64,000 bases of DNA from Flavobacteriales bacterium (GTDB taxonomy: Bacteria > Bacteroidota > Bacteroidia > Palsa-965): positions 1 through 64,000 of the forward strand of contig JBEIPA010000018.1 in assembly GCA_040377305.1 (NCBI GenBank). The letters run 5' to 3'. Position 1 is the stretch's first letter; every line of letters starts with the position of its first letter. This document shows positions 7,235 to 25,800 of the stretch, piece by piece. A program made the translations under genes and the position numbers. The notes under the pieces are model-generated. The model did not search any database and had not been told where the DNA came from. It saw nothing but the letters and a program-made list of their open reading frames with translations.

Positions 7235-7405
7235 CACGGACAATTTGAGCACTTTCTACGGCGATTTTGGCGCGCTGAAAACTTTTAACTCGCTGATATT
7301 CATAGAAACTACGTGAAATAAAACAGTGCGTTTTTCACAGCAAGGGTAGTTTGGCACGAAAAATATTTTGCAATTCGGCAACTGCCCAGGTCTACTTTAG
7401 TTGTG
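7235..7405 (+). promoter_or_regulatory. Promoter region of cargo cassette 1, homologous to 25800-25631(-)
   Basis: Colinear blocks CACGGACAA, CACTTTCTAC, CTGATATTCA, ACAGCAAGG and TACTTTAGTTGTG match the amidase upstream region at nearly identical spacing. Confidence 0.75.
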
Positions 7406-7448
7406 AAGGATATATGACCTACTCTGTATCCGAAAAAACTATTGTACA

Positions 7449-7757
7449 ATGGCAGACCTTATATTCTCACAAGTAATCGTAACAGAAATTGCGAAGAAGA
7501 CTACTTCGCCGGGCACAGTAACACTTAATGTACCGGTGGATAAAGTATGGAAGATTGAAAGTGTTGCGATTGGTGGAACGAATGGAACGGTGTATCTGAA
7601 AAAGTCAAATGAGTTAGTGGGTATTCTATTTACAACTATCTCACGCGATCAGTTCGCAGCGCAACTTCCGTTCTGGTTACCTGCTGACTATTCGATTGAT
7701 CTGGTGAATGACAGTAGTGAAAGAGCGATTGTGTCGATTTCGGAATGGGATAATTGA
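7449..7757 (+). CDS. Hypothetical small beta-rich protein (VPxxKVWKIES motif)
   Basis: 102-aa ORF with ATG start, first gene of cassette 1, no signal peptide. Confidence 0.75.
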   Translation: MADLIFSQVIVTEIAKKTTSPGTVTLNVPVDKVWKIESVAIGGTNGTVYLKKSNELVGILFTTISRDQFAAQLPFWLPADYSIDLVNDSSERAIVSISEWDN

Positions 7758-7783
7758 AACGCAACTAGAAAGGACAAATAATC

Positions 7784-9127
7784 ATGCACGATTATAAGAG
7801 TACATCGGGAAATGAGTATAAACAGAATAAGCAGCCGTGGGAAGGTGATGTTCAGCTAAACGAGGAACAGCCCGAGCACCCAAGGGTGGCGCAGAATTTA
7901 TACAAATTGCTGGACTACTCTGTTTATATCAATGAGCCTCCGACCAAAACAATTCCTTCTCTCATAAAAGGTCAGGTAATAGTTGAGGAAGATCCTTGGG
8001 CAATGCCCTCAATTGGTCAAACCGGGTCTAAAGAAAGTACGGACGATATTGTAGACATCAGCTTTTACCGCACCGGCTACTATAAGGGTAAGCAGAGAGA
8101 CGGAGAACTTATTGGCACCATTCATATTCCTGTAAACGTAAATGGGGTCACCTTCGACATAAATTCATTGGTCAAGCAGATTGCTGCAATGAATTTCGGA
8201 GATATGGAACTGCTGACGCTTTACAATGGGCTAATAAATATTCCAGAACTAGTGCCCATCGTAAGTTCACTCAACATGTACGCTCTTAAGGGTCTCGTGG
8301 ATGATGCAAAAAAGAATGATCCGCAGAACGAGAGTATTGGCGATATCATGAAGGAGGCGGATGCAGGATTTGAGGATATTCTGACTCTGAAACCTGAGAA
8401 CAAATCGTTTATTACTTCGGCGAGCAGTAAAGCAGGAGAAAGCCATAGAAAATATCTTTTGGGTCCCGCACCATTGATCTATCAGATGGCCAGAGCAAGT
8501 TGGAGTGGAATTCTCAAGGACGATCCGGCATTCAAATCTTATTATGATACTGTGCATCAGGCCGAGGTTGGGAAAACAGCTGACGATATATTAGAGAAAA
8601 CATTCGACCAGACAATGGAGAAGAAAGCCTGGCCGGTTTTTAGTGCGCTAACTGTTGTATCTCAGGGAGCATTTGAAGCTGGTTGGGGTGAAGGATTGAA
8701 AAGCCTGAATAAGCGGATACAATTAAATAACTACCATGGCCACATGGCGGGTGGAGAAATGAAGAAGTATTCAAGCTTCGGATATAATCAGCTTTTTCAC
8801 TACCTGATGCTTTATCAACGCTTTCCTGATGCGATCGGAATGTATGAGTCAGGAAAATTTACGGGGGATAAATTGGAACAGGTCCTGAAGTCAGGCGCTC
8901 ACAAAAAAGATCGTAAATCCGGTGAGTACAGTTATGATACCAGCCGTTCCGACTATGGAACTTTTATTACAGATAGTATGAATCCGCTAGTACTGAAAGT
9001 ATGGAAAGCTGTGCTCAAGGAAGAAATTGCTTGTGCGACTTCCTTGCTGGGCAGCAAGCCGTCATTGCAGTCGCGTATTGCCAAACTTCAGTGGATTCTT
9101 GATGAGATCAATACTTTGAAATTATAA
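7784..9127 (+). CDS. Putative eCIS cargo with divergent GH73/FlgJ-like glucosaminidase C-terminal domain
   Basis: SQGAFEAGWG (cf. AQAxLESGWG), NNYHGH (cf. NNLFGI), KKYSS and YSYDTSRSDY (cf. YATDPxY). N-terminal leader shared with 19430-17985. Confidence 0.65.
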   Translation: MHDYKSTSGNEYKQNKQPWEGDVQLNEEQPEHPRVAQNLYKLLDYSVYINEPPTKTIPSLIKGQVIVEEDPWAMPSIGQTGSKESTDDIVDISFYRTGYYKGKQRDGELIGTIHIPVNVNGVTFDINSLVKQIAAMNFGDMELLTLYNGLINIPELVPIVSSLNMYALKGLVDDAKKNDPQNESIGDIMKEADAGFEDILTLKPENKSFITSASSKAGESHRKYLLGPAPLIYQMARASWSGILKDDPAFKSYYDTVHQAEVGKTADDILEKTFDQTMEKKAWPVFSALTVVSQGAFEAGWGEGLKSLNKRIQLNNYHGHMAGGEMKKYSSFGYNQLFHYLMLYQRFPDAIGMYESGKFTGDKLEQVLKSGAHKKDRKSGEYSYDTSRSDYGTFITDSMNPLVLKVWKAVLKEEIACATSLLGSKPSLQSRIAKLQWILDEINTLKL

Positions 9128-24498: not shown

Positions 24499-24603
24499 GT
24501 TGTTTATCTGTTTATTGGTTCACTATTCCTTGTTCATCGATCATTGTGCGTTGAGCGTTGTTCATTTTACTGTTACTCCTCGTCGCCCGAACTGACCATC
24601 CGT

Positions 24604-25602
24604 TTAAAACTGTAAGAACTCTTTACTCACCCACTTCTCCTCTACTCCTACTCTACACCATCCATTCTCTTCCCGGTAAATAAAAAGTTCCTCGCCTTTT
24701 TTGTAAGAACCTTTCTTCTCGAAATTTGTTCCCGGACCCGTTCGCACATTGAGTGTATCTGCTTTCACAGTTGCTCGTTTTGCCTCGGCAGTATATTTTC
24801 CATGCACCCAGTGATTCATCGATGCTGAAATTTTCAACCAGCCGTCTTTCTCTTTGTACACGCGTAGCACCGAACCCAACGTAGCTGGTTCACGATCCGC
24901 AACTTTGTCAAATGTTGTTCCCGCACCTTTGCGCACATTCAGTGTATCTGCAGTTACATAAGCATAGCGCAATATCGCTGGCGGATTTTCCGGAACAGTA
25001 ATCACACTTCCTGTAGATTTCAGCGCTGTTTTCACGAGCGGAATAAATCCTTTCGCAGCATCTGCCACCTTATTTCCTCCGAAGAAATTTGTACCGGGAC
25101 AAGTTTTGGTTGAACCCGTTCCGTCAGTACGCTTTCCAGTATTCAGATCAAACCAATGATGATACACGACATGATCTGTATCAACTGGTATATTGAACTT
25201 TTTACACAAAGCTGCAGTCATGCGAACAATTGTTGCCGCATGTTCTTTCGTCATTGCATCTTTTCCTGTGTCGAAATTTCCAAAGTGTTCAATGCAGATT
25301 GAATGTGTGTTGAATCCTTTAATTCCCGAAGGCGTCACTTCAAGACTGCGTCCGGTCACAATTGTTCCATCGGGAAAAGTGGTGAATTGCTGTGCGATGT
25401 CAGAGAATCCTCTTTCGATCACATGAAAGTCACGCATCGATTTCTGTCGTTCGAAATGAATATTCCCCTTGAAGTGTTCGTAAGAAGGAATGGCTGTATG
25501 ATGCTCCTGCACCGACTTAATCGTGCGCGCCACACTGATCTTATTCAGCCAGTTTTCAAATTCATCAATTGTGAATTGTGTAAAGCCGTATTTGCTTGTC
25601 AT
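24604..25602 (-). CDS. N-acetylmuramoyl-L-alanine amidase (Amidase_2) with two SH3b domains, no signal peptide
   Basis: EHHT, ICIEHFGNFD, YHHW and KTCPG Zn-amidase motifs; two ADTLNVRxGxGT SH3b repeats. Confidence 0.9.
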   Translation of the reverse strand: MTSKYGFTQFTIDEFENWLNKISVARTIKSVQEHHTAIPSYEHFKGNIHFERQKSMRDFHVIERGFSDIAQQFTTFPDGTIVTGRSLEVTPSGIKGFNTHSICIEHFGNFDTGKDAMTKEHAATIVRMTAALCKKFNIPVDTDHVVYHHWFDLNTGKRTDGTGSTKTCPGTNFFGGNKVADAAKGFIPLVKTALKSTGSVITVPENPPAILRYAYVTADTLNVRKGAGTTFDKVADREPATLGSVLRVYKEKDGWLKISASMNHWVHGKYTAEAKRATVKADTLNVRTGPGTNFEKKGSYKKGEELFIYREENGWCRVGVEEKWVSKEFLQF

Positions 25603-25630
25603 AGTGCATATAGTTTTGAGTGGAAATACC

Positions 25631-25800
25631 CATAACTATATTACTCCGAAATATTGGTTTTTGACAGCCGGTCTATAAATCGCGAAAATTCCTTGCTGTA
25701 AATTTTCGCCCTCTTTTTTACACCTAGTCCGTTGATTTTCAGTGGTGCCAGAAATTCCAATACCTCAATTTCCGTGTAGAAGTGATCGAATTTGTCCGTG
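25631..25800 (-). promoter_or_regulatory. Promoter region of cargo cassette 2, homologous to 7235-7405(+)
   Basis: Minus strand reads CACGGACAA...CACTTCTAC...CTGAAAATCA...ACAGCAAGG...TAATATAGTTATG, at the same spacing as the cassette 1 region. Confidence 0.75.

Follow-up and report, generated by a model that had tools for sequence, protein, structure and literature searches.

The window analysed here is the whole stretch of 64,000 nucleotides at the start of contig JBEIPA010000018.1 of a Flavobacteriales bacterium (GCA_040377305.1). It holds the 5′ part of the structural operon of an extracellular contractile injection system (eCIS) and two cargo cassettes, and a regulatory module is found twice in it, the left copy at 7235-7405(+) and the right copy at 25800-25631(-). 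As judged from sequence comparison, this module is a real, eCIS-specific and selected multi-site cis-element. Our preferred reading, to which we give a probability of roughly 0.7, is that its 110 bp would act as a shared, activator-dependent two-way promoter switching on the eCIS operon together with scattered cassettes composed of an ATPase plus cargo.

The duplicated module and its copies in the genome

An earlier note on this DNA described a promoter architecture of ~170 bp duplicated at these two places. The blocks are indeed collinear at the offsets that it gave (1/1, 21/21, 59/59, 75/74, 103/102 and 159/158, left/right), and the local alignment score of 193 compares with 103 ± 17 for dinucleotide shuffles, none of 5000 of which reach 193. 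The duplication is then real, although it is not a uniform 170 bp. Between the copies, 7235-7345 has 73 identical positions in 113 columns, the tail (7346-7405) 30 in 63 and the upstream sequence 43 in 107. Because the similarity is concentrated in 7235-7345, the shared element is better described as a core of ~110 bp plus a -7-like box.

Both copies in the window are confirmed, although the genome total is four and not two. BLAST and a three-copy profile detected further copies at C1:9547 and C10:53872 (C1, C5 and C10 denote other contigs of the assembly), and a profile made from 40 copies of other genomes retrieves exactly four sites here (E 3.5e-17 to 3e-8; next E 0.21), the best match in a reversed-genome control having an E of 3.5. 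Far from being widespread upstream of unrelated genes, the motif is thus limited to four sites in 5.2 Mb. Both remote copies sit 59 bp from the start of an Afp15-type ATPase gene, so that the genome-wide motif scan proposed for finding remote cargo cassettes has recovered two of them. The ATPase gene on C10 is followed by that of the genome's only DUF4157 (eCIS-core) protein. The second remote cassette is the following:

L001:11001-14951 (C1): Afp15-type ATPase, a protein of 1316 aa that carries an ADP-ribosyltransferase domain at its C-terminus, and a small open reading frame (ORF)

The small ORF that ends this cassette could be an immunity gene. The genome has four Afp15-type ATPases, two in the window cassettes and two in the remote ones, and all four genes, as well as the sole DUF4157 gene, belong to units headed by a copy of the module.

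Distribution among relatives

In whole-genome scans, 14 of 34 relatives proved to carry the module at E<=0.001, with up to 12 sites per genome. Afp15-type ATPases are present in all 14 module-bearing relatives, and the module is present in none of the 13 relatives that lack such an ATPase. The genes faced by the 22 held-out copies are recognisably eCIS in 17 cases, belong to a Cache-domain family in two and include one tail-collar gene; for the other two copies nothing could be assigned. Moreover, a genome of another family (G055) carries seven copies, all of the same layout and all flanking eCIS genes, which keep block A, a clear second GGACAG at block B (19 bp after A) and, mostly, the centre. 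In a class-wide scan of 150 sampled genomes, repeated strong matches beyond the genus occur only in G055, whose own relatives show scattered weak single matches; a G055-derived model gave nothing convincing in the 150 genomes. An exact-pattern scan of metagenome contigs gave no matches, the pattern being too strict.

The amidase-caspase cassette of the window, which the note had linked to the eCIS through its module copy, has counterparts that bear out the link: the amidase orthologues of two relatives carry the module in the same orientation.

Two further arrangements were observed in relatives. Tandem copies ~500-600 bp apart occur in L037 (G013) and L140 (G008), one facing the head gene and the other a 102-aa gene; these pairs are the two-way module split into two one-way ones. 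Also, large membrane proteins with a weak Cache-domain match lie on the A side of five copies (L154:3244-6201, L078, L144, L048 and L075), three of them with a divergent Cys-rich 230-aa gene that is also seen in eCIS cassettes. These Cache-like proteins are possibly a sensor within the regulon.

Anatomy of the module

The anatomy was counted over 63 unique copies from 15 genomes. Copies whose A or D block fails the anchoring pattern, or whose local E is above 0.001, were left out, among them those of G016 and G026, which on inspection by eye likewise precede head, ATPase or cargo genes. G012, an unpublished genome, accounts for seven of these copies and is counted once in every presence tally, and no conclusion depends on it alone. 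In the window the blocks are placed as follows:

7238..7246, +: left block A (GGACAAWTT), predicted proximal activator site at about -44 to -36 of the leftward promoter
7254..7263, +: left block B, a weak direct repeat
7286..7302, +: left block C, IHF-type predicted bend site with a near-palindromic centre
7334..7345, +: left block D (TYACAG core), predicted distal activator site
7350..7358, +: TGGCAC-type motif, adjoining D in eight head-of-operon copies, with a spacing that excludes a sigma54 promoter
25789..25797, -: right block A, with no -7 box beyond it
25772..25781, -: right block B
25731..25742, -: right block C, a partial IHF-type site
25691..25702, -: right block D

The order A-B-C-D is fixed, the distance from A to D is 98-101 bp in 63 of 63 copies, and the GGA of block A is invariant across 42 aligned copies. 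Spacers have diverged while blocks and spacing are kept, and the element is specific to eCIS genes, which upholds the earlier proposal of selection on multi-site regulation. This pattern also bears on the idea that the copies are relics of cassette duplication, upstream DNA having been carried along and only a one-way promoter (A plus the -7 box) being of consequence. The copies are homologous, some being near-identical within one genome, and the right copy retains A despite having lost its A-side box, as relics might. However, blocks and A-D spacing hold across the 63 copies while the spacers diverged, C and D are retained where the D side faces a convergent gene, and all four blocks persist in the right copy although it lacks an A-side outlet, which makes this explanation improbable.

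Block C was compared with the IHF consensus WATCAR-N4-TTR. It matches exactly in 24 of the 63 copies and with at most one mismatch in 45, against a background mean of 0.7 and a maximum of 3, and the genome encodes three full-length IHF/HU genes. An IHF-type centre flanked by direct repeats would also suit a site for recombination (att-like or invertible) through which cargo cassettes are moved or inverted, and the tandem copies of two relatives could be taken in the same sense. Nonetheless, a 10-nt inverted repeat between the ends is found in only two of the 63 copies, no recombinase family match lies beside the four copies of this genome, and the fixed -7 box together with start codons that lie mostly 42-130 bp from block A fit a promoter; a role in recombination is therefore highly improbable. 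As for RNA, no conserved pairs were found on either strand (mean z about 0) and there was no Rfam match in three loci, so the module likely acts as DNA.

Direction and promoter boxes

The earlier note had placed the two copies at the head of the cargo cassettes, which lie beyond block D. For most copies this direction is reversed, since 51 of the 63 have an eCIS gene on their A side: a head gene in 12, an ATPase in 17 (one assigned by eye from a short N-terminus), a DUF4157-type gene in 13 and other cargo in nine. The remaining A sides comprise seven genes not established as eCIS, two that are unassigned and three copies using the D side only.

A -7-like box lies exactly 23 nt past A in 54 of the 63 copies, compared with at most eight at any other offset. 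It is degenerate on this side, its first T being replaced, mostly by G or C. The -33 box of Bacteroidota is TTTG, 19-21 nt upstream of the -7 box, and activators usually contact the polymerase around -44 to -36. In the module, a possible -33 box is reduced to one G, kept in 53 of 63 copies, 20 nt before the -7 box. The Bacteroidota sigma-A -7 box is reported as TAnnTTTG, at -12 to -5 (PMC9723704), and with the -7 box in this position block A would lie at -44 to -36. In this genome TAnnTTTG is strand-biased (500 sense vs 94 antisense), whereas the [GC]AnnTTTR form shows no such bias of its own (297 vs 314), which fits activator dependence. The presence of T9SS (type IX secretion) genes and of the TAnnTTTG box identifies the host as belonging to the Bacteroidota.

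On the other side, a box at +55 to +57 past D is found in 18 copies, including 12 of the 12 that face the start of a small-protein, amidase or DUF4157 gene there. The boxes of the window are listed below with the starts predicted from them, 5 nt past each box.

7207..7214, -: leftward promoter, degenerate -7 box; start predicted at ~7202, leaving 52 nt to the 688-aa head gene
7393..7400, +: rightward promoter, -7-like box; start predicted at ~7405
25636..25643, -: amidase-facing promoter, -7-like box; start predicted at ~25631, leaving 29 nt to the ATG

The amidase-facing box is also at +56 in both other amidase copies. The right copy has no -7 box beyond A, so its A-side outlet is likely dead. 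The copy at 7235 would then likely be divergent, driving the structural operon and the left cassette, and the copy at 25800 likely drives the amidase-caspase cassette only, as in the two relatives.

A sigma54 promoter with an upstream enhancer and an IHF bend, as in the regulons of type VI secretion systems (T6SS), would account for the IHF-type centre; the genome encodes three sigma54 activators, GG-N10-GC starts at block A in 20 of 63 copies, and a TGGCAC-type motif is present in eight. However, the GC is absent from all four copies of this genome (0/4), GG-N10-GC at A points away from the A-side genes and occurs on the gene strand in at most five of 63, and none of the eight TGGCAC-type motifs has GC at the -12 position. 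There is therefore very little probability left for sigma54.

If the module is a two-way promoter, as we prefer, the housekeeping sigma factor would read the weak core promoter beyond A, with a dedicated activator occupying A and B, adjacent to the -33 position, as well as D at a distance of ~100 bp. A protein of the IHF/HU type would bend C and bring A/B and D together; where the box beyond D is kept, this complex would also fire the second promoter there. With copies at the remote cassettes, each ATPase would be made, along with its cargo, at the same time as the particle. In Photorhabdus, cargo is loaded by Pvc15 (PMC11495950), and DUF4157 proteins are known eCIS cargo (PMC11126660). The amidase could serve the release of the particle by lysis.

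A candidate activator

According to the earlier note no regulator is encoded nearby. This is true of the DNA between the two copies, but a candidate activator is found on the adjoining contig C5, at the far end of the structural operon, where the gene for a 495-aa TPR protein follows the tape-measure gene. Of the 34 relatives, 18 have an orthologue, essentially a single one each; these are 18 of the 19 sheath-positive genomes and none of the 15 sheath-negative ones, and 10 of the 18 have the orthologue directly behind the tape-measure gene. In G055 the candidate gene is divergent from an ATPase gene, with a held-out A-B half-copy in between. The structural model (pLDDT 95.5) has a helical N-terminal domain, with the conserved basic residues K35, R36, K71 and R73, and a TPR solenoid. 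Moreover, the protein matches the BT2802/RusR model NF058569 remotely (E 1.6e-8; 11 of 24 aligned members), with 34 bits, below the cut-off of 550, so that it is only a remote relative of RusR. Its family has 631 representatives at E<=0.001. One of the 24 members matches the SARP model weakly, the candidate has no match among the Pfam regulator families RfaH, GerE/LuxR and BTAD, and the Atlas returned only unnamed Bacteroidota clusters for it. The candidate tree groups genomes as the motif variants seem to by eye, a likeness for which shared ancestry is also an explanation. Taken together, the RusR-like TPR protein would be the likeliest activator, at about even odds.

A more specific form of this proposal is tentative, and we would sooner bet against it than for it. 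In it, the RusR-like TPR protein would be a ligand-sensing eCIS master activator with an undescribed N-terminal DNA-binding domain. It would bind direct repeats with an ACAR core that lie to either side of an IHF bend, and it would fire a two-way promoter that unites the particle, its lysis genes and several remote cargo cassettes, each ATPase-specific, in a single regulon.

The same module could instead be bound by another protein. This might be a LytTR protein that stands alone, a response regulator of the NarL/GerE type or an alternative sigma factor for which A is the -35, and the TPR protein would then act in assembly or in the timing of lysis. In five relatives (L238, L239, L241, L242 and L247) the candidate is preceded by a LytTR-only gene, the genome encodes 20 LytTR proteins, GerE regulators are reported to flank 25.8% of eCIS loci (PMC8213781), NarL genes lie near two module copies, and no helix-turn-helix was found in the candidate by profile and fold searches. 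On the other hand, the LytTR-only gene has no close orthologue in the module-bearing G010, G015 and G007, the two NarL genes are only 29% identical and are not orthologues, and any given ECF-like -35/-10 pair is shared by seven of the 63 copies at most. Also, inspection by eye of the DNA downstream of the 20 LytTR genes brought out no A/D-like site, and a LytTR-linked partial match (E 3.3-3.8) was dropped. We consider another binder unlikely, though it is the most serious of the alternatives to the preferred reading.

Several observations concern genes of these families. A lysozyme-like gene with a GH25-type motif follows the candidate in four relatives. A LytTR-only gene on C1 (L003:2059-2412) heads a type II secretion or pilin-like operon. 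An ORF of ~90 codons lies between the tape-measure gene and the candidate (L233:1154-1429), with similar sequence in four genomes. Two more remote RusR/BT2802-like proteins of ~500 aa are encoded in the window at 34225-35712 (-) and 44570-46114 (+); the first matches NF058569 with E 6.6e-33 and is divergent from a large protein that is secreted via a type IX system (T9SS). The genome has up to six members of this family.

Points that weigh against the preferred reading

Some of the data do not favour an activator-dependent two-way promoter, or the TPR protein as its activator. The A side of nine of the 63 copies faces genes not established as eCIS, and on the D side there is no eCIS gene for four of the 18 box-bearing copies, two more being undetermined. 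Block D is not conserved in the copies of G055. Four genomes with both an eCIS and a candidate activator (G020, G024, G027 and G029) have no copy at E<=0.001, and G016 has weak copies only. Moreover, kin genomes in the counts are not independent. As for the TPR protein, its presence profile is confounded, since the paralogue at 44570 of the window is found in eCIS-bearing genomes for 15 of its 17 carriers, a distribution similar to that of the candidate, although looser. Its N-terminal domain matched no known DNA-binding fold: profile comparison with LuxR and OmpR domains gave probabilities below 9%, and fold searches with a poor single-sequence model of the domain (pLDDT 63) gave a best Z of 5.7 and nothing clear, which does not show absence.

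Layout of the window

The locus has the genes expected of an eCIS (sheath, tube, spike, PAAR, baseplate, Pvc16, tape measure and Afp15 ATPase). The structural operon joins contig C5 in frame via a 10-nt overlap, and its C5 part encodes tubes, spike, PAAR, baseplate and tape measure.

1..7150, -: eCIS structural operon, 5′ part; the window begins inside the operon
5084-7150, -: tail-fibre-like head gene, 688 aa, first gene of the eCIS operon
4139-4753, -: Pvc16, with a 102-aa protein between the head gene and Pvc16
1135-2829, -: sheath, with a 445-aa protein between Pvc16 and the sheath
running off the window start onto contig C5, -: second sheath gene of the eCIS operon
7449..16733, +: left cassette, encoding a 102-aa protein, a 447-aa protein, an Afp15-type AAA ATPase, a 326-aa protein and a 1684-aa putative cargo
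7449-7757, +: the 102-aa protein of the left cassette, with no family match, recurrent on the D side of the module in relatives
9207-10673, +: Afp15-type AAA ATPase of the left cassette
17304..25602, -: right cassette, encoding an amidase-SH3 protein, a caspase-domain protein, an Afp15-type AAA ATPase, a calpain-family protease and three unknown ORFs
20259-21236: calpain-family protease, alongside the ATPase in the right cassette
21329-22744, -: Afp15-type AAA ATPase of the right cassette
22741-24498: caspase-domain protein, alongside the ATPase in the right cassette
25803..26060, -: 85-aa ORF, ending 2 bp before the right copy and outside the module

No homologue of the 85-aa ORF was found in the genome or in the fetched loci. 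Two homologues of the left-cassette 102-aa protein, with signal-peptide-like starts, are encoded on C10 downstream of a collagen-repeat protein. A 20-codon ORF (7415-7477) opens 10 nt past the start predicted for the rightward promoter and runs into the beginning of the 102-aa gene. In G011, a caspase orthologue adjoins the eCIS head.

Significance and comparison with known systems

In the openly accessible literature that was searched, we found no description of such a module and no account of how Bacteroidota switch on an eCIS and coordinate distant cargo. The module would offer a concrete operator for eCIS control in this phylum, and also a search tag for orphan effector cassettes, two of which were found here, one with the ADP-ribosyltransferase-domain protein. 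The cassettes each bring their own loading ATPase, and a family of ~500-aa TPR proteins is nominated as transcription activators with a defined target. If the TPR protein is the master activator, this would be the first binding site for a large uncharacterised family of Bacteroidota regulators, and the module would be a DNA tag for orphan eCIS effectors.

Compared with a Bacteroidota sigma-A promoter, the module has a box of -7 shape at a fixed distance on either side, although the A-side box is mostly G/C-initial and the -33 box is down to one G. With respect to the loading ATPases Pvc15 and Afp15, each cassette here has a Pvc15-type ATPase beside putative cargo; however, four paralogues are present, none of them in the structural operon, and relatives have up to nine matches.

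Known or proposed eCIS regulators are of the RfaH, GerE/LuxR and BTAD types (PMC8213781). The present case resembles them in that the regulator gene adjoins the eCIS operon, while the part of that source consulted gives neither a binding site nor a dispersed regulon for them. In Bacteroides thetaiotaomicron, RusR has to be present for its operon to be fully activated (bioRxiv 10.1101/574913; PMC12596196). The candidate and BT2802/RusR are alike in their size of ~500 aa, in N-terminal similarity and in having the gene beside the operon, but RusR controls a sugar locus, and the portions of these sources that we used give no binding site for it. With the RRNPP regulators (Rap, NprR, PlcR and AimR) and domain III of MalT the candidate shares a C-terminal TPR solenoid, its structure matching RapI (Z 19.6, rmsd 4.6, 305 aligned), NprR (Z 18.0) and MalT (Z 16.4); nonetheless, eukaryotic TPR proteins match it about equally (LGN, Z 18.2), and it gave no helix-turn-helix match. 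As regards a cognate signalling peptide, a small ORF precedes the candidate gene in four genomes.

Finally, the H2-T6SS of Pseudomonas aeruginosa (RpoN with Sfa2) and the T6SS of Vibrio cholerae (RpoN with VasH), together with IHF, are described as tying orphan effector islands to the main cluster (PMC8855297). The likeness lies in a cluster-encoded activator, here a candidate, and in an IHF-type bend that coordinate a machine with remote islands. However, the machine here is an eCIS and the islands consist of an Afp15-type ATPase plus cargo. Moreover, the core promoter looks sigma-A-type and not sigma54, the module is two-way, and the candidate is a TPR protein, whereas the T6SS activator is an enhancer-binding ATPase. 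This is a known regulatory logic in a new form, with a testable operator and a plausible new activator.

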